Source: an uncultured bacterium (GTDB lineage: Bacteria; Patescibacteriota; Minisyncoccia; UBA6257; GWB1-50-10). Taken from it: DNA of 64,000 nucleotides. Position 1 is the stretch's first letter. Every line of letters begins with the position of its first letter. The notes under the pieces were generated by a model. That model did not search any database and had not been told where the DNA came from. It saw nothing but the letters and a program-made list of their open reading frames with translations. The stretch lies in NCBI GenBank assembly GCA_963768835.1, contig CAVYJB010000001.1, forward strand, positions 216,420 through 280,419. The letters are read 5' to 3'. The position numbers and the translations under genes were made by a program. Positions 662 through 27,034 of the stretch are shown piece after piece.

Positions 662-1153
662 TCAGGAACCGGTGGGGCGCATCAGCGGATGGATGCTCAC
701 CGTGTCCCCCACCTGAACTCCCAGCGACTGCACGCGTCCCGCTGAAAGTTCGAGAACCTTATCGACCGGAGAGGACGGATAGTAATTCCGAAGCTCCGCA
801 TCGGTCGCGCCAATCTGAGGGTCGACGTTCTGCTCGAACCCGACAATGCGATTTCCCGCGATCCAGACAAAATCGAGAGGGAAACGCATGTCCTTCATCC
901 AAAAGCCATAGAGGTCCGCCGACGGGAAGGTAAAAAGCATGCCTTCGTTCGGCCCGAGACTCGCGCGACCACCCAGCCCTTGGTGCTGGGCCTCAGGTGT
1001 GCTCGCCACATCCACCGTGAGAGTCGAGTTGCCGATCTGCACCACCGCCTTGCCCGGCACCGCATTGTAGCGGTCGAGAAATAGCACCGCGACCACCACG
1101 AGCGCGATGGCGATACCGACGAGAACGACTCCAACCTTCAATCGGCCCGACAT
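662..1153 (-). CDS. DUF192 (ACR, COG1430-like) domain protein with N-terminal membrane anchor
   Basis: N-terminal TM helix then MLFTF...FPLDFVWI motif pattern typical of DUF192. Confidence 0.7.
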   Translation of the reverse strand: MSGRLKVGVVLVGIAIALVVVAVLFLDRYNAVPGKAVVQIGNSTLTVDVASTPEAQHQGLGGRASLGPNEGMLFTFPSADLYGFWMKDMRFPLDFVWIAGNRIVGFEQNVDPQIGATDAELRNYYPSSPVDKVLELSAGRVQSLGVQVGDTVSIHPLMRPTGS

Positions 1154-2041: not shown

Positions 2042-2137
2042 TGCGAGAGGCAGGGTTCGAACCTGCGACCTTCGATTTCGAGATTGCCGCGTAACCGGTT
2101 CTCTCTAACGCTGCTCTACCAACTGAGCTACTCCCGC
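2042..2137 (-). tRNA. tRNA-like gene with ~20-nt insertion between D-arm and T-arm (isotype undetermined)
   Basis: reverse complement gives GCGGGAG acceptor, canonical D-arm GCTCAGTTGGTAGAGC, T-arm GCAGGTTCGAACCCTGC and 7-bp acceptor closure with G4:U wobble; 45 nt instead of ~22 between D- and T-arms; no encoded CCA. Confidence 0.5.
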
Positions 2138-3140: not shown

Positions 3141-3626
3141 ATGAGCGCTGTCGCTGAAGCGCCTGTCATGCAGGAGAAACGAGCGGTCTTACCCTACAAG
3201 CCTCTCGTCTCCGGCAAACTGTGGAACCGGCTGGTCGGTCGAATTCAAAAGGACCACCCGGAGATAAAAAAGAACGAAGCGGAAGCCATCATGGATGCGG
3301 CGCTGGGTTTCCTGAAACTCTGCGCGAATCATCCGGAGAATCGGTTTGCGCCTTCGGAGAAGGTGGATATCGGATGGCATACTTTCCTGATGTACACGCG
3401 GGAATACCACGAGTTCTGCAGGGACCTTGGCGGGAACTACATCCACCACGTCCCGAACGACGATCCGAGGGTACCGCAGGAACGCGGAGCTCTGGGCAAG
3501 ACGGTCCGGTTCATGCGGACCAACGGTGTCACCTTCAGCCCTCGGCTCTGGTTTGGGAATGCCGACTGCACGGTGGACTGCAGGGATGACTGCTCGAATT
3601 GTTCACAGAATAGCTGCACCAAGTAA
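3141..3626 (+). CDS. hypothetical protein with Cys/Asp-rich C-terminus (DCTVDCRDDCSNCSQNSC)
   Basis: AGGAGC RBS 8 nt upstream; intact 161-aa ORF; C-terminal C-x-x-D motifs resemble the downstream precursor core. Confidence 0.55.
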   Translation: MSAVAEAPVMQEKRAVLPYKPLVSGKLWNRLVGRIQKDHPEIKKNEAEAIMDAALGFLKLCANHPENRFAPSEKVDIGWHTFLMYTREYHEFCRDLGGNYIHHVPNDDPRVPQERGALGKTVRFMRTNGVTFSPRLWFGNADCTVDCRDDCSNCSQNSCTK

Positions 3627-4794: not shown

Positions 4795-4824
4795 TTGACT
4801 TACGACAGCAATTATTGGTATATT
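4795..4824 (+). promoter_or_regulatory. sigma70-like promoter upstream of RiPP precursor gene
   Basis: TTGACT - 17 nt - tgGTATATT (extended -10) about 50 nt upstream of precursor ATG. Confidence 0.5.
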
Positions 4825-4872
4825 GTTCCTAGCAATGCACTTCACAAACGAAGAGAAAGGAGGCAAGCGGAG

Positions 4873-5139
4873 ATGAGCAAAAAAGGAAGCGTAGCGATTG
4901 AGAAATTGGACAGAATCGCTTCTCGTAGCGCTCGGCTTTCGGCACAGCACAGTGCTATCGGTAACGCATCGGGATGTCCGGTTGATGATTGCAGATCCGA
5001 CGGCGAGGGCTGCCAAGTCGATGTCGACCCAGGACAGTATCGTCCTGGTATTCCGTTCGCAGACAGCTGCGAATGTGAAGACGACGGCTGCTTCGGAGAC
5101 AAGGACAGCTGCGGAGAATCGGGATGTAGTTCTGTCTGA
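4873..5139 (+). CDS. RiPP precursor-like peptide, Cys/Asp-rich core with four C-x-x-D repeats
   Basis: AAAGGAGG RBS 9 nt upstream of ATG at 4873; 88 aa; leader-like N-terminus then CPVDDCRSDGEGCQVDVD...CECEDDGCFGDKDSCGESGCSSV; immediately upstream of a radical SAM/SPASM gene. Confidence 0.6.
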   Translation: MSKKGSVAIEKLDRIASRSARLSAQHSAIGNASGCPVDDCRSDGEGCQVDVDPGQYRPGIPFADSCECEDDGCFGDKDSCGESGCSSV

Positions 5140-5146
5140 AACTCAT

Positions 5147-5171
5147 GCGAGGGGGTAGTATACCCCCTCGC
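5147..5171 (+). promoter_or_regulatory. perfect 9-bp hairpin between precursor and radical SAM genes (attenuator/processing site candidate)
   Basis: gcgaggggg-tagtata-ccccctcgc directly after the precursor stop and before the RBS of the next gene. Confidence 0.5.
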
Positions 5172-6582: not shown

Positions 6583-7836
6583 ATGCTGAGTTTTAAGAGG
6601 TTAGAAAATCGAGGTACGCCCATCTACTGGATGGGTATGAATTCCGCCGAATCGCTCGCCATCGGTATATTTGTCAACGCCGGGACACGCGATGAGCGGT
6701 GGCCTGAGGAGGCCGGGCTGGCTCATGCACTCGAGCACATGAATCTGCGAGGGACCAAGAAATTCCCTACAAGCGAATCCTTGAACAGCTATATTGAGGG
6801 AGTCGGGGGAAACAAGGGTGCGTGGACGGACAAGGAAGGGACTTTCTACTACGGCCGAGCTCCCTACCAATACCGAGAGAGACTGTTCGAGGTCCTTTTT
6901 GAGGCAGTTCAAAATCCCCTGCTTCTCGAGGAGCGTATCTCCGTAGAAAGGGGAAGTATCCTGAAGGAAATAAGAAGGAAGATCGATAATCCGCCTGAAA
7001 CGCTTTATGACCTTACGCTAGATTTCATATTCAAGGAACACCCGCTTTCGCGAAAGACACTGGGAACTGAGGAAGCGGTGGAAGGATTCCAGAGGAAGGA
7101 TTTCGTGAAATTCAGAGAGAAATTCTACAACTCGGCGAACTATGTTATTTTCTTCATCGGCAACGCAGGAGAGAACGAGGTAATAGAATTGGTGGAAAAA
7201 TACTTCAAGAATGAAAAGTTCTCCGGAAAGAACATACGAAAGGAAGTGGCCTGGAAACCGGGGAGTGAGCAGGCGCTCTATAAGCACCGGGATGTAAGCC
7301 AAGCCTATTTCTCTTTGGCAGCACCCTTCCGCGAGACACCGCGCGATTATAGCTCATTAAGGGCGCTGGATATGTTCTCAGTTATGATATCGGGCGGCAC
7401 CGCTTCTCCGCTGTTCCAAGAAATGAGAGAGAAGCGGGGGTTGTGCTATACAGTCCAATCCGGTGTCCGGCATTTCTCGGATCTGGGCTTCTTCTACATT
7501 CAAGCCGGTACAGATCCAAAGCAATACAGGGAAGCTATCGACACGGCACGCAATGTTATGGAGAGAAGCAAGAAGGATGATGCGTTGCTCCAGAGAACCA
7601 AGAAATACCGGCTCGGCCAGTTGCGGTTGGGCTACGAGAATACCGGTGATATCCTGGGCACCGCGGCGCACCAAATGCTTTCGTACGGAGAACCGAGGGA
7701 TTTCTTCAAGATAGAGAAAGAGATCAATGATTTTAAAATCAGCGACATCGAGAAAGTTGTAGATTCATACCTAAAACCCGATCTGATAAAGGAAGTTGCT
7801 ATATTCCCGAAGCAAAGCGAAGCCCCTTCGAACTGA
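6583..7836 (+). CDS. M16 family (pitrilysin/insulinase-like) zinc peptidase
   Basis: inverted zinc motif HALEHM (HxxEH) near the N-terminus, 417 aa. Confidence 0.85.
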   Translation: MLSFKRLENRGTPIYWMGMNSAESLAIGIFVNAGTRDERWPEEAGLAHALEHMNLRGTKKFPTSESLNSYIEGVGGNKGAWTDKEGTFYYGRAPYQYRERLFEVLFEAVQNPLLLEERISVERGSILKEIRRKIDNPPETLYDLTLDFIFKEHPLSRKTLGTEEAVEGFQRKDFVKFREKFYNSANYVIFFIGNAGENEVIELVEKYFKNEKFSGKNIRKEVAWKPGSEQALYKHRDVSQAYFSLAAPFRETPRDYSSLRALDMFSVMISGGTASPLFQEMREKRGLCYTVQSGVRHFSDLGFFYIQAGTDPKQYREAIDTARNVMERSKKDDALLQRTKKYRLGQLRLGYENTGDILGTAAHQMLSYGEPRDFFKIEKEINDFKISDIEKVVDSYLKPDLIKEVAIFPKQSEAPSN

Positions 7837-7857: not shown

Positions 7858-8526
7858 ATGGTTTATAAGTTGAGCCTGACAAAATCCAGCGACAGGTTTG
7901 TCGAAGGGGTCTTTTGTAAGTCCATGAAGGATCTCGGTAAATTTTATGCCATCCACTGGACAACAAATACACCCAAAATTGTCTTACTGAAAGACAGAAA
8001 AACAATTGACTTGTTGCGTGCGAGAAAAACTGAACCGTGGCTCGTCGGTTGGGCCAACGGAGAAATGCGGATTGTTTTCGTATTGGACAGAAGGAGTCTG
8101 GGGAAATACAGTTCCCACAAATACTCTAAGGAGCATTATTCCTCTTTGATCAAACACGAACTCAGCCACCTATTCTATAAAATACTCACCGGCGACAAAC
8201 GGGGCCCCGTATGGCTGTCCGAAGGCGTGGCAATTTATACCTCTGGCCAACATAAATCGAGAACAGTGCCTAGCGAATTCAAGAATTTCTTGACGTTTTA
8301 CAGTCATGGCGGTTCTGGAGTATACGCAGAATCGGGCTTCGTTGTTGAAATACTTGTTAGAAACTTTGGCAAGAATAAATTACTTAAACTTATAAAATCT
8401 TTGCGAAGCATATCCGATGAAAAGCAATTCAATAGGGTCTTTAAAAGAATTTATGGATTTCAGATTAGTTATAGAAGCATAAATAACTATTATACAAACA
8501 GCTCTCCTCCACGATTAAGAACATGA
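7858..8526 (+). CDS. HExxH zincin-like protein, paralog 1 (peptidase MA-like)
   Basis: HELSH followed by WLSEGVAIY (gluzincin third-ligand-like). Confidence 0.65.
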   Translation: MVYKLSLTKSSDRFVEGVFCKSMKDLGKFYAIHWTTNTPKIVLLKDRKTIDLLRARKTEPWLVGWANGEMRIVFVLDRRSLGKYSSHKYSKEHYSSLIKHELSHLFYKILTGDKRGPVWLSEGVAIYTSGQHKSRTVPSEFKNFLTFYSHGGSGVYAESGFVVEILVRNFGKNKLLKLIKSLRSISDEKQFNRVFKRIYGFQISYRSINNYYTNSSPPRLRT

Positions 8527-9215
8527 GGAAGCTCCGCTTCTATTTCAACAGAAATCTAGACAAGTTCATGGCTGCCCAGTTTCTCGACGAAAAAATGGGC
8601 GGCATTGATTTTGGGGTAAATATTGTTAAGCTCCATCCCCTACTAAGGTCCTCCAAAAAGGATCGGGGGGCGAGAAAGAAAACATTGGATAAATATTTCA
8701 AACAATACTACCGTAGCCATCGCCGTGAAATGTCTCAGAAGGCATCGAGGATAAAAGAGGCGTGGCGTGACGTCGAGGACGAGTTTGTGATCACGACGGA
8801 ACGTTTGTTAGGTGGATTCCGTTTCCCATCCGGCCGGTACATCGCATACCCCTCGATTGTGGACTGTAACCCCCGCTTTCTGGTATCAAAAACGTTCCAG
8901 TTCTACTATCGGAAGGTCCCCACGGATGCCGTGCACACCATTGCCCACGAGCTTCTGCACTTCATCTTCTTTGCATTCGTCAAATCGAGGTTGAAGAATG
9001 CCATCAAGAAACTTCCTGAGGAGAAGCTCTGGGACCTCTCGGAACTTTTCAACGTCATAATTCTTCAATCGCCGTCTTACCGGAAACTCATCAATCCGCA
9101 CTATGCCCATCCCTATCCAGACCACCAAAAGTACGTCTCTCGATTTGAGACCGCCTATCGAAAGTCCCGCGCCATAGAGGAATTCATCCGGAACGGGATC
9201 GCAATTATAAAATGA
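8523..9215 (+). CDS. HExxH zincin-like protein, paralog 2
   Basis: HELLH motif; ATGA start/stop overlap with upstream gene. Confidence 0.6.
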   Translation: MRKLRFYFNRNLDKFMAAQFLDEKMGGIDFGVNIVKLHPLLRSSKKDRGARKKTLDKYFKQYYRSHRREMSQKASRIKEAWRDVEDEFVITTERLLGGFRFPSGRYIAYPSIVDCNPRFLVSKTFQFYYRKVPTDAVHTIAHELLHFIFFAFVKSRLKNAIKKLPEEKLWDLSELFNVIILQSPSYRKLINPHYAHPYPDHQKYVSRFETAYRKSRAIEEFIRNGIAIIK

Positions 9216-10036
9216 AGCACAAGAAGAGCATCGGCAGCATGAAAACACCCAGACTCGAATATAGAAATTCCTATGAAGTGTTCGTTCTTTTCGCTGCCCT
9301 GAACGCGCTGGGGTACGACGATGAGAGCCGGATCAGCGGGATGTCCCTTCTCCGAAGGAGAACAAGAGGGTCCCTGCGCAGGCATGTTCGGAGCCAAAAA
9401 TACCCTCAGCTGAAGAGATTCTTTCATGCACACAGCCCGTGGCATCTTCTGATCTTCACGCTCCGCGGCAGTTCAATCCCGGCCCTCCGGAGTTTCTCTA
9501 AAGAACCAGCAGTGCGGGCGCTATGGAGGGAAGCGCGAACGCGCCAAGAGGCGGAGTTGGGAAAAATCTCCACGCTTTTCGCGCGTGAAACGGTGCGCCT
9601 TATTCGACTCGTCGGAAAACCGGTTCGCCCCATCGACCGAATTGTGCTTATCCCAAATCTCCTTGATGCGTACTGGCGCGGATACTGTCTCCGCGTGAGG
9701 CGGGTCTGCTACATCGTAGTAGGGCCAGGGGCCGAGAAGAACGGCGGCGAGCTTATCCGGCACGAACTCCTGCATCTCCTGGCCCCGAATATCCACCTCC
9801 CGCTCCCCGCTCACTCGCCCAAAATCCGTGCCCGCCTTTCGCGCCAGGGTTACTCTAACCAATCTATTATTAATCGTGAGTATGTCGTCCGCGGCCTAAA
9901 CCTTCTCTATGAGTCAGAGTTTTTGAGTAAGAATATCCGCGCATCAGTCGTACGAGAACGAAGAAATTTCCCCTATATTAGGAAGGTTATAAAATCTCTG
10001 AAAACAAAGATGGGGCTGGCATTTTCGAAATCATGA
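9212..10036 (+). CDS. HExxH zincin-like protein, paralog 3
   Basis: HELLH motif; translationally coupled. Confidence 0.6.
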   Translation: MKHKKSIGSMKTPRLEYRNSYEVFVLFAALNALGYDDESRISGMSLLRRRTRGSLRRHVRSQKYPQLKRFFHAHSPWHLLIFTLRGSSIPALRSFSKEPAVRALWREARTRQEAELGKISTLFARETVRLIRLVGKPVRPIDRIVLIPNLLDAYWRGYCLRVRRVCYIVVGPGAEKNGGELIRHELLHLLAPNIHLPLPAHSPKIRARLSRQGYSNQSIINREYVVRGLNLLYESEFLSKNIRASVVRERRNFPYIRKVIKSLKTKMGLAFSKS

Positions 10037-11040
10037 AACTCTTCATCCAAATCTCAAAATTACATAACTACTTCTTCTTTGTTTCGAACCTTGCCGAGTG
10101 GAGCCCCTATTGTCGAAAGCAATACAACGAAGTCTGGCTTCGCGGTAATCCTCTCACTGCACCAGAGCGGACAGCGCTTAAAAAGGTGGCTGGTGTCTTT
10201 AAGAAGCATGGGTTCTCGGATCGATTCGCCTCATCCGAATCTCCTGATGTGATATGGGACACCATCGCGAAAACTCTGAAACCGGATGAGTATGCGGCAC
10301 TTCGGAACGCTTTTGCTACGCTCACTCCGCGATTTGAGAAGGTATGGCGGCGCGAGAAGGGAAATCTAATGCGGGTGCAAAAGGAAATGAAGAAATCGCT
10401 CTCGCTCTCCAAAAGAGCTCTTGGTGTGTTAGAAACTCTTTACGGCGCTCCGTCAAAAAGTTTGACCCTCGAGATATTCCTCCTCACAAATCCCATCTCC
10501 AAGCGCCTAGTGGGAGGCGGAAGCGGCATCGGGGAAAACAAAATCGAGCTTGAGTGCTCAAGGGTGACGAAACACAACAACCCAAAAGGGTGGCTGGGCA
10601 GGGTTATACTCCATGAATTCGTCCATGTGGCGCTTGAGAAAGAACTCCGAGACAAGATCGGGGCCTTTGTAGGCAGCAAGGATTTCCGAAAGCGCCACGA
10701 ACCGTTTTTGAAGCACTCCGCTATCTATTGTGAGACTCGATCGTTCGTCGGACCTATCAAGGAGATGGTTGCTGTATCCCTTCTCCCCGAAGGATATCTA
10801 GCCGAGAAGATTTATGGCGCGCGCGTCGTCGAGAGCCTGAAACAGCGGAACGCGGTCCGGACCCACACCTTCCGGAAGGACTACTACGACCTGATGCTTT
10901 TCTCTCTGTGGGGGCTCTATGATATCGCCAAGGAGTACTCCGACCAGCGGAAGCCGATTGACAGGAGGTACATCGAAACCGTGGTGCGGAATTGGGAATC
11001 CTTCGAGAGCATGGATCTTTCGAGGTTTGACCCCGAATAA
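10033..11040 (+). CDS. HExxH zincin-like protein, paralog 4
   Basis: HEFVH motif; translationally coupled. Confidence 0.6.
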   Translation: MKLFIQISKLHNYFFFVSNLAEWSPYCRKQYNEVWLRGNPLTAPERTALKKVAGVFKKHGFSDRFASSESPDVIWDTIAKTLKPDEYAALRNAFATLTPRFEKVWRREKGNLMRVQKEMKKSLSLSKRALGVLETLYGAPSKSLTLEIFLLTNPISKRLVGGGSGIGENKIELECSRVTKHNNPKGWLGRVILHEFVHVALEKELRDKIGAFVGSKDFRKRHEPFLKHSAIYCETRSFVGPIKEMVAVSLLPEGYLAEKIYGARVVESLKQRNAVRTHTFRKDYYDLMLFSLWGLYDIAKEYSDQRKPIDRRYIETVVRNWESFESMDLSRFDPE

Positions 11041-25987: not shown

Positions 25988-27028
25988 ATGATGAGACCAA
26001 TGACGACACCTCGTCACATCCTCGTGACCGGCGGCGGCGGATTCCTGGGGTCAGTGCTTGTCCCTCTTCTCCTCGACCACGGGTACCACGTGACTGTCCT
26101 TGACCGTTTCTTCTTCGGGCGTGGCACGCTTGCCGCGTGCTCCTCGAACCCCCGCTGCAAGCTTGTCGAAGCCGACACGCGCACCGCGCCGGAGACCCTC
26201 TTCCAGGGCATCGATTCCGTCGTCGACCTTGCGGCGCTCTCGAACGACCCCTTGAGCGAGCTCAAACCCGAAACGACCCTCGACATCAACTTCCACGCCC
26301 GGGTGCGCACCGCGACGCTCGCGAAAAGGCACGGAGTGGGACGGTACGTGCTTGCCTCGACCTGCAGCGTCTACGGGTTCCAAAACGGCGTTCTCACAGA
26401 GACCGCCGTTTTGAATCCGCTCACGACCTACGCGCGCGCGGCCGCGCGCGCCGAGGAACGCACCCTCGCGCTCTCCGACGGAACCTTTGCGGTGACCGCC
26501 CTGCGGCAGGGAACGCTCTATGGCCTTTCGCCGCGAATGCGCTTCGACATCGTGGTGAATACCCTCACGCTGTCGCTCTTCCGCGACGGGAAACTCCACC
26601 TCAACGGGGGCGACCAGTGGCGTCCCCTCCTCCATGTGGGAGACTCCGCCCGCGCGTTCCTTGCCGTGCTGGAGGCGCCCCCCGCGGCCGTCGGAGGCCA
26701 GGTCTTCAACGTCGGTGCAACAGCCCAGAACTTCCAGCTGAACCACCTCGCCACGCTCATCGTACGCACCCTCGATATCCCGCCAAGGATAGAGACGACG
26801 GAGGCGTACGACCATCGTTCGTACCGAACCTCCTCCGCGAAAATAGAGCGGACCCTCGGCTTCATGACGCAGAAAACGCCGGAGCACGGCGCGCGGGAGG
26901 TGTACGGGGCGCTCCGCACGGGAAGCGTCACTGCAGAAAAAAGCACCATCACGCTTGAGTGGTACAAGCATCTCCTCTCAGGCGACCCGGGGATTCTCGA
27001 TCCCCGCGATATCTCCCACACCGCATAA
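25988..27028 (+). CDS. NAD-dependent epimerase/dehydratase (SDR family)
   Basis: ILVTGGGGFLGSVLV Rossmann motif. Confidence 0.85.
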   Translation: MMRPMTTPRHILVTGGGGFLGSVLVPLLLDHGYHVTVLDRFFFGRGTLAACSSNPRCKLVEADTRTAPETLFQGIDSVVDLAALSNDPLSELKPETTLDINFHARVRTATLAKRHGVGRYVLASTCSVYGFQNGVLTETAVLNPLTTYARAAARAEERTLALSDGTFAVTALRQGTLYGLSPRMRFDIVVNTLTLSLFRDGKLHLNGGDQWRPLLHVGDSARAFLAVLEAPPAAVGGQVFNVGATAQNFQLNHLATLIVRTLDIPPRIETTEAYDHRSYRTSSAKIERTLGFMTQKTPEHGAREVYGALRTGSVTAEKSTITLEWYKHLLSGDPGILDPRDISHTA

Positions 27029-27034
27029 CGGCCT

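Follow-up and report, generated by a model that had tools for sequence, protein, structure and literature searches.

Several enzymes are known to link a cysteine sulfur to a carbon of another residue within a ribosomally made peptide, and those closest to the system described here are radical S-adenosylmethionine (rSAM) enzymes and carry a SPASM domain. In the freyrasin system of Paenibacillus, the PapA precursor repeats a CX3D motif six times beside PapB, an enzyme that bonds the sulfur of Cys to the C-beta of Asp or the C-gamma of Glu and that also crosslinks synthetic CX1-5D peptides, CX2D included, to completion in vitro. In Clostridium thermocellum, the thermocellin precursor CteA, one of the SCIFF peptides (six Cys in forty-five), is modified by CteB, whose acceptor is a Thr and not an Asp. 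QhpD acts on QhpC, an acidic, leader-bearing enzyme subunit with a Trp-derived quinone, in which it makes three Cys-to-Asp/Glu links at wider spacings (e.g., Cys41-Asp49, CX7D) before a dedicated protease removes the leader (PMC7876137). In sactipeptides such as StsA/StsB and subtilosin, by contrast, the linkage goes to the alpha-carbon, and StsB was reported to form three Cys-Gly sactionines (PMC10288494). Here, we describe a locus of this general kind in a stretch of 64,000 nucleotides (the window) from an uncultured bacterium of the Patescibacteriota (GenBank assembly GCA_963768835.1, contig CAVYJB010000001.1, positions 216,420 to 280,419 of the forward strand), in which an open reading frame (ORF) for a Cys/Asp-rich peptide at 4873..5139 (+) precedes an rSAM/SPASM gene. 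Very probably, this ORF encodes the precursor of a peptide made by ribosomes and modified after translation (RiPP) on which the adjacent rSAM enzyme acts, and the modification is probably a thioether; that it specifically joins Cys to Asp or Glu is a proposal to which we give about an even chance.

The ORF encodes an 88-residue peptide (MSKKGSVAIEKLDRIASRSARLSAQHSAIGNASGCPVDDCRSDGEGCQVDVDPGQYRPGIPFADSCECEDDGCFGDKDSCGESGCSSV), the last 54 residues of which (35-88) form a core with eight Cys (positions 35, 40, 47, 66, 68, 73, 80 and 85), ten Asp, four Glu and no Trp; Cys, Asp, Glu and Gly together make up 30 of these 54 residues. An original prediction, made from the DNA letters alone, had quoted this core with its eight Cys, and translating 4873..5139 reproduces it exactly. 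It had also listed four C-x-x-D motifs (CPVD, CRSD, CQVD and CFGD) plus CGES, all of which are there, but it had overlooked CEDD, so that the real count is five. In addition, C-x-x-E occurs once in the core, as CECE, and C-x-E is seen in CGES, while there are only two C-x3-[DE] versus six C-x2-[DE]. When the core was shuffled 100,000 times with its composition preserved, five or more C-x-x-D were found at a frequency of 0.0028 and six or more C-x-x-[DE] at a frequency of 0.0020. The periodicity that had been proposed is real as well: Cys residues follow each other at spacings of 4,6 (Cys35-40-47), then 18,1, and then 4,6,4 (Cys68-73-80-85), meaning that the 4,6 pattern is repeated in residues 35-47 and 68-85 and that the core can therefore be described as two copies of a C-x2-D-x-C-x2-D-x3-C module.

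No gene is called at 4873..5139 in the public records of the contig, and a collection of 15 billion proteins does not contain the exact peptide. A word-index search for homologues gave zero candidates, and an exhaustive phmmer search against 1.84 billion representatives uncovered no true homologue; its two matches (P0050 and P0051) are long repeat proteins aligning to the leader-like, low-complexity part of the peptide and were judged spurious on inspection. Comparisons with Pfam and NCBIfam, the SCIFF precursor model included, returned no family at E up to 0.01. An independent assembly from the Logan collection (run ERR11594402) is identical to the window over 7,281 bases that include the ORF. 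Judging from the signals in front of it, which are a ribosome-binding site and, ~50 nt upstream, a putative promoter-like site (Table 1), the ATG at 4873 is a credible start codon. A longer ORF starting from a TTG at 4795 was rejected, as its first codon would fall within the promoter-like site and precede the ribosome-binding site. Between the precursor and the rSAM gene lies a hairpin that has no T-run behind it (minimum free energy of -24.7 kcal/mol and z = -2.4 for the 71-nt stretch that was folded), and which may possibly act as a partial terminator or as a transcript-stabilizing structure. Since the promoter-like site, the ribosome-binding site and the hairpin come together with conserved related peptides beside homologues of the rSAM enzyme, we conclude that this ORF is a genuine gene.

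These related peptides were found by fetching the DNA around rSAM homologues (~30 at 34-58% identity) and around further relatives in genome and metagenome collections, and by scanning it for small Cys-rich ORFs. A total of 16 distinct Cys/Asp-rich peptides, including that of the window, were collected, each adjoining an rSAM gene or lying within a gene or two of it, and the corresponding enzymes were 32-58% identical to that of the window. They came from Parcubacteria, Paceibacterota, Berkelbacteria and unassigned metagenome contigs, so that the named sources are mostly bacteria of the candidate phyla radiation (CPR). The peptide-enzyme pairing is kept in at least 15 independent loci, in several of which the peptide is a called gene; examples are ...LEELEALAITSAVLPTNSQPRGCDVDGCFGDKDSCGETSCRPND in locus L168, ...LEELEKLSVVSVQLQNGPNNASTDCDSDGCWGDRDSCGEPSCDSVG in L166, ...LEKLDQLANKVISLRVKFGIGDACEDDCDCNGDPDSCGEGPCPIG in L088 and ...CEDKCSDNCQDSDGCDGDCGGDCEDSAS in L002. 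An alignment of 14 of these precursors (the window peptide and 13 others, alignment A3) displayed a common leader motif, L-E-x-L-E-x-L-A/S, in which Leu12 is invariant and which reads IEKLDRIAS in the window peptide, and two types of cores: D-G-C-x-G-D-x-D-S-C-G-E-x-x-C (type A) and C-D-G-D-C-G-G-D-C (type B). The Cys of C-x-G-D, corresponding to Cys73 in the CFGD of the window peptide, is invariant in this alignment. In the whole set, C-x-G-D is found in 14 of the 16 peptides, namely, in all those next to an rSAM enzyme of at least 38% identity and also in those of L091 (36%) and L096 (32%).

The register between Cys and acidic residues is conserved too, with 40 C-x2-[DE] observed in family cores versus 20.7 expected (0/20,000 shuffles) and 34 versus 18.7 once the window peptide is left out, although the family sequences are related and these statistics consequently measure conservation of the register rather than its independent recurrence. 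No other Cys-acid spacing is enriched (spacings of 0, 1, 3, 4 or 5 residues; for example, 17 CX3[DE] versus 19.7 expected). Thus, the C-x-x-D register of the original prediction is indeed conserved in homologous clusters, whereas three of the motifs that it had presented as part of the pattern, CPVD, CRSD and CQVD, turned out not to be a family feature: they are confined to an insertion of ~33 residues (roughly residues 33-65) that only the window peptide has and that the 13 other aligned members lack. This insertion carries the second copy of the module, and all the relatives that we found have a single one. A recent tandem duplication of the core module was considered and rejected at the DNA level, as only 23 of 54 bases are identical between modules 1 and 2. 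As for the idea that such a spacing had not been described in characterized members, it holds for natural ranthipeptides, which use CX3D in freyrasin and spacings such as CX7D in QhpC, but not chemically, considering the range of spacings that PapB accepts.

The rSAM enzyme encoded next to the peptide has an rSAM CX3CX2C motif (CNLQCVYC, Cys72/76/79) and a complete seven-Cys SPASM motif (C303-x12-G-x4-C321 ... C369-x2-C372-x5-C378-x3-C382 ... C402), even if its Pfam SPASM match of 20.5 bits is just under the 21.5-bit cut-off. These ten cluster-binding Cys are all invariant in 23 homologues, which have no further invariant Cys. Its best match in NCBIfam was the PapB family of ranthipeptide maturases (NF047865; 115 bits for a cut-off of 340), followed by a nif11-type maturase family of unstated chemistry (105 bits, cut-off 519), the SCIFF maturase (TIGR03974; 93 bits, cut-off 425) and QhpD (TIGR03906; 85 bits, cut-off 453), while the sactisynthase models RumMC (54.7 bits, cut-off 720) and GggB (43.7 bits, cut-off 650) scored lower. 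As had been predicted, a precursor with leader and core adjoins a SPASM enzyme, the nearest relatives of which are thioether maturases (PapB, SCIFF/CteB and QhpD). CteB is its closest solved structure, both by sequence and by fold: with a profile of the family, CteB (5wgg) was matched across the rSAM and SPASM domains at E = 2e-38 and anSME (4k37) at E = 1e-24, and an AlphaFold2 model of the enzyme (mean predicted local distance difference test, pLDDT, of 86.8) was closest to CteB (template modeling score of 0.73, ~17% identity). In the profile alignments, a single SPASM Cys is found where anSME has two (Cys255 and Cys261), the family reading FCG and CteB TGCG in place of the SSSCGMNGTC of anSME. 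In their 2017 work on CteB, Grove et al. are said to have found that this arrangement leaves the site of auxiliary cluster I open and that a substrate Cys binds there. A CteB-like seven-Cys SPASM domain would therefore fit thioether chemistry, without proving it. In front of these domains, the first ~60 residues of the enzyme form a beta-rich domain.

Further away in the rSAM clade, relatives of the enzyme always sit beside Cys-rich peptides, which makes Cys the common denominator. Four such relatives at 31-33% identity (L007, L017, L098 and L104), from Gammaproteobacteria, Acidobacteriota and unassigned metagenome contigs, are encoded upstream of proteins of ~150 residues ending in long C-x-C-N-x-V-C-[ST]-C repeats (e.g., CSCNKVCTCNLVCTCQSVCSCQSVCSC), and those of DPANN archaea (L012 and L013) adjoin other Cys-rich peptides. 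None of these distant enzymes reaches any curated NCBIfam cut-off.

When compared with the described systems, the locus shares with freyrasin a precursor with repeated Cys-x(n)-Asp beside an rSAM/SPASM maturase, and PapB is the top-scoring curated family for its enzyme; more generally, it has what is seen in ranthipeptide loci, i.e., an enzyme with CX3CX2C and SPASM motifs beside a precursor whose Cys are followed by acidic residues at a regular spacing. Unlike freyrasin, it uses CX2D and not CX3D, it has another leader, it is found in another phylum (CPR) and it includes additional M16 and HExxH genes, and its enzyme, at about a third of the curated score, is not a PapB equivalog. The seven rather than eight SPASM Cys of the enzyme, with a single Cys at the site mentioned above, are shared with CteB, but the two proteins differ in most of their residues, the N-terminal domain of the window enzyme is only ~60 residues long and its precursor does not match the SCIFF model. 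What it would have in common with QhpC/QhpD is a SPASM rSAM enzyme installing several Cys-to-Asp/Glu thioethers in a single acidic, leader-bearing polypeptide (PMC7876137); still, the core has no Trp, the enzyme is far from the QhpD cut-off, and a scan of the genes between 3141 and 11930 did not reveal any of the qhpA/B/E/F/G type. StsA and StsB would be similar in that Cys-rich cores with conserved Gly are crosslinked by SPASM rSAM enzymes, but sactisynthase models score below ranthipeptide models here, and Asp is co-conserved in the window family. Altogether, the system appears from its sequence to work like a ranthipeptide/sactipeptide system while being outside every named family that was tested (PapB, SCIFF and QhpD, the CX3D pattern and the SCIFF precursor model).

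Since the nearest curated maturases (PapB, SCIFF and QhpD) all form thioethers, we favor a thioether-bridged RiPP, which may be made as follows. The ~34 N-terminal residues would be a leader, whose L-E-x-L-x-x-[LI]-[AS] motif would dock the peptide on the rSAM enzyme. This CteB-like enzyme would then, most likely, turn core Cys into intramolecular thioether bridges, for which the best-fitting acceptors would be the acidic residues located three positions downstream of Cys (C-x-x-D/E), because it is the C-x2-[DE] register that is conserved and by analogy with PapB and QhpD. If sulfur is joined to Asp C-beta or Glu C-gamma, small 13-membered rings should result, as deduced by counting the ring atoms of a CX2D link, so that a ranthipeptide-type ring would be closed in the CX2D register instead of the CX3D register of freyrasin. 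The window peptide would offer two tandem C-x2-D-x-C-x2-D-x3-C modules to the enzyme, and its relatives one. Removal of the leader may finally fall to the M16 peptidase encoded in the locus and/or to the HExxH zincin-like proteins that are encoded behind it (Table 1).

Table 1. Features of the predicted precursor-maturase locus and of the genes downstream of it, in window coordinates
Feature	Position	Strand	Evidence
Promoter-like site, TTGACT-18 nt-TG-TATATT	4795..4824	+	Consensus scan, 10/12 matches, extended -10; pattern match only
Ribosome-binding site, GGAGG, 9 nt before ATG 4873	4859..4863	+	Read from sequence
Predicted leader region, residues 1-34, containing IEKLDRIAS	4873..4974	+	Alignment A3
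Core module 1, residues 35-50, CPVDDCRSDGEGCQVD	4975..5022	+	Cys spacing 4,6 fits canonical module
Inter-module linker, residues 51-65, VDPGQYRPGIPFADS	5023..5067	+	Translation; no counterpart in homologues
Core module 2 and stop codon, residues 66-88, CECEDDGCFGDKDSCGESGCSSV	5068..5139	+	Family-conserved D-G-C-x-G-D-x-D-S-C-G-E-x-x-C
Perfect 11-bp GC-rich hairpin between precursor and rSAM gene	5147..5171	+	Centroid structure, -22.3 kcal/mol
Radical SAM/SPASM peptide maturase, 426 aa	5195..6475	+	Pfam Radical_SAM above cut-off
Terminator-like stem-loop and T-run across rSAM stop codon	6458..6493	+	Consensus scan, 12-pair stem then TTTTTTAT; pattern match only
M16 (pitrilysin-type) zinc peptidase	6583..7836	+	Peptidase_M16 (PF00675) 82 bits, Peptidase_M16_C (PF05193) 113 bits, above cut-offs
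H1, HELSH at 8155-8169, Peptidase_MA_2	7858..8526	+	Pfam 40.2 bits vs cut-off 32.4
H2, HELLH at 8946-8960, start overlaps H1 end	8523..9215	+	No Pfam/NCBIfam match
H3, HELLH at 9761-9775	9212..10036	+	No Pfam/NCBIfam match
H4, HEFVH at 10612-10626, zincin-like fold	10033..11040	+	No Pfam/NCBIfam match

The terminator-like element at the end of the rSAM gene suggests that the precursor and the enzyme form a two-gene unit. Behind it, the M16 protein has both domains of its family and an HxxEH motif (HALEH at 6724-6738, residues 48-52), which makes it a candidate leader peptidase; its homologues are encoded beside the rSAM gene in L085, L088, L166 and L170, and the subtilosin operon (AlbA) also carries peptidases of the M16 family, AlbE and AlbF. 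The four genes that follow (H1-H4, 7858..11040) are consecutive and translationally coupled by 4-nt overlaps, but their products are mutually dissimilar (BLASTP E of 0.04 or worse). H2 has a homologue of 49% identity in L166 and H3 one of 45% identity in L090, while the H4-type protein is the commonest partner of the rSAM enzyme in the family (L001, L002, L005, L091, L165, L168 and L170); closer H4 homologues adjoin other SPASM rSAM enzymes with different small peptides, and the H4 family recurs beside unrelated SPASM rSAM genes in L172 and L173. Proteins with an HExxH motif can be misleading: alpha-ketoglutarate (alpha-KG) HExxH enzymes that are associated with rSAM enzymes and have a zincin-like fold beta-hydroxylate Asp or His in RiPPs, and were once mis-annotated as metallopeptidases (PMC12636437). 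The window differs from such systems in having four separate HExxH genes, and H4 appears to match peptidase domains more strongly. No link between H1-H4 and the alpha-KG HExxH hydroxylases ChlB-H, PflC/PosC and BpmH was detectable in sequence, and no significant match was found in NCBIfam, a library whose content was not checked for a model equivalent to IPR026337. H1-H4 may be either peptidases or oxygenases.

Upstream of the precursor are genes for a SAM-dependent methyltransferase and for a 161-residue protein. Both were rejected as conserved members of the cluster, since credible counterparts of them are missing from the related loci, in which the sole methyltransferase match was a marginal alignment of 50 residues in L166 (E = 0.001) and no homologue of the 161-residue protein was found. 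This protein (3141..3626 (+), ~1.2 kb upstream of the precursor), which a precomputed Pfam match assigns to PF27765 (UCP032817-like), ends in a Cys/Asp-rich tail (...NADCTVDCRDDCSNCSQNSCTK) in which C-x-x-D occurs twice and Cys residues are spaced by 3,3,2,5, much as in type-B cores.

Several observations weigh against Cys-to-Asp/Glu thioethers, or at least against reading them from this locus, in addition to the relatedness of the sequences behind the register statistics. The enzyme falls short of the curated cut-offs of every named maturase family, and far short of those of PapB, SCIFF and QhpD, and the ~17-20% identity that it shares with solved enzymes is too low for a reaction type to be read from similarity. 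A Pfam scan of its residues 1-70 returned nothing at E up to 10, the models of PqqD and of RiPP recognition elements included. Among the peptides, those of L006 and L093, whose rSAM enzymes are 35-36% identical to that of the window, lack C-x-G-D; C-x-x-[DE] is missing altogether from L006 and is limited to CCED and CEDD in L093. Cys85, the last of the conserved Cys, is not followed by a conserved acidic residue, even though a conserved E-x-x-C lies upstream of it, while PapB needs an acceptor that is C-terminal to the donor. Moreover, conservation in C-x-G-D and in C-G-E is as strict for Gly as it is for Asp, and the alpha-carbon of Gly could be the acceptor. If so, the same enzyme would make a sactipeptide-type product, with Cys sulfur linked to the alpha-carbon, most plausibly of the conserved Gly, and with Asp serving in solubility, metal binding or recognition by the enzyme. 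Cys-Gly sactionines of the StsA/StsB kind would fit the sequence equally well: type-A peptides all keep two Gly, one at +2 from the invariant Cys and one after the next conserved Cys, type-B cores read C-D-G-D-C-G-G-D-C, and an enzyme that forms three such bonds is known (PMC10288494). A study of PapB further indicates that the substrate can steer the regiochemistry between C-alpha and C-beta, making the divide between sactipeptides and ranthipeptides partly arbitrary. Nevertheless, the top curated matches are of the ranthipeptide type (PapB, SCIFF and QhpD), with RumMC and GggB lower, and the Asp at +3 is as invariant as the Gly, so that we regard a sactipeptide as unlikely, if well worth keeping in mind.

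The acidic residues might also be modified in another manner, with the rSAM enzyme making some crosslink or change and at least one of H1-H4 being an alpha-KG/Fe hydroxylase of the ChlH/PflC type that beta-hydroxylates Asp, and not a peptidase. Such enzymes do act on rSAM-modified RiPPs (PMC12636437), and H4-type proteins recur beside SPASM rSAM enzymes in other clusters; yet no HExxH-hydroxylase family was detected for H1-H4 in NCBIfam, and an oxygen-dependent enzyme would be disfavored if the CPR host is anaerobic. CPR bacteria are mostly anaerobic fermenters. We consider this scenario quite improbable as an alternative, and, being compatible with thioether formation, it would not exclude it. 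Hardly better are the prospects of a product that would mainly be a Cys/Asp peptide for binding metals, be it a chelator or a small metalloprotein, with most of its thiols free or in disulfides and with the rSAM enzyme introducing a minor or unrelated change, such as an epimerization or a single crosslink. The composition of the core, more than half of which is Cys, Asp, Glu or Gly, speaks for it, and other Cys-rich RiPPs are generally known to act as copper chelators, but a fixed Cys-to-acid register and an invariant C-x-G-D exceed what a chelator driven by composition needs, the CteB-like seven-Cys SPASM arrangement fits the binding of a substrate Cys, and no transporter or metal-related gene was recognized in the cluster by Pfam and NCBIfam scans. 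That the ORF is a chance frame, intergenic and unexpressed, is scarcely credible. The lack of a public gene call, the absence of the exact peptide from the protein collection and the word-index and exhaustive HMMER searches that ended without a true homologue would all be expected of such a frame, whereas the ribosome-binding site and the promoter-like site would not, and the leader and core motifs that it shares with peptides beside divergent rSAM enzymes, several of them called genes, already contradict this explanation, since they are conserved across at least 15 independent loci.

New families of rSAM-modified RiPPs regularly come from genome mining, and this one appears to be new in several respects: neither Pfam, NCBIfam nor the searchable literature has the family of precursors, the motif of their leaders, the CX2D/C-x-G-D register, the form with two modules or the HExxH partner family, and core motif strings such as GDPDSCGE and CDGDCGGD were not found in the literature either. 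Papers that cover both ranthipeptides and Patescibacteria held nothing specific on such clusters, and the literature that we searched yielded no experimentally characterized RiPP from CPR bacteria. If the thioether-bridged RiPP with CX2D rings that we favor is correct, it would constitute a ranthipeptide-like family, occurring naturally in bacteria with reduced genomes, whose ring register is unseen in characterized members. There is a demand for small thioether rings as stable peptide scaffolds, and the two-module peptide offers a way to ask how a single rSAM enzyme processes repeated modules. The H4 partner family is of interest as well, as it could comprise leader peptidases or alpha-KG HExxH oxygenases. 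With the precursor uncalled in public records, pipelines that rely on those gene calls would miss it. We also consider, with little confidence, a bolder proposal in which these loci represent a distinct and mostly CPR class of RiPPs: a divergent CteB-like enzyme would use a modular Cys/Asp scaffold to build very tight thioether rings of the CX2D kind, and perhaps of the CX1E or E-x-x-C kind as well; the recurrent HExxH partners would not be ordinary peptidases but oxygenases that tailor the peptide or a new type of leader-processing enzyme; and ultra-small symbionts would use the product, a compact and highly acidic peptide with several rings, to interact with a host or to capture metal.

Some related loci are more complex than that of the window. 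Extra radical SAM/SPASM genes are found within a few kb of the clusters of L166 (1814..3181 and 9348..10448), L090 (5005..6030 (-)) and L006 (7517..8494); L166 has three rSAM genes in total, with the precursor placed downstream of its M16 gene and not upstream of the rSAM gene. Moreover, the rSAM genes of L166 and L005 are apparently split by frameshifts.

Two observations concern the wider surroundings of the locus. A DUF192 protein encoded at 662..1153 (-) of the window is 47% identical to one at 8781..9260 of L002, each within a few kb of the rSAM cluster, and this nearness (in the window and in L002/L003) may be due to residual synteny and not to a functional link. Finally, tRNA searches gave two results that differ by tool: ARAGORN reported a 90-nt tRNA-Leu(gag) at 26943..27032 (-) that is not in the Rfam list, and Rfam detected a tRNA of 96 nt at 2042..2137 (-) (49.6 bits), not reported by ARAGORN; this tRNA is unusually long and may contain an intron or a long variable arm.

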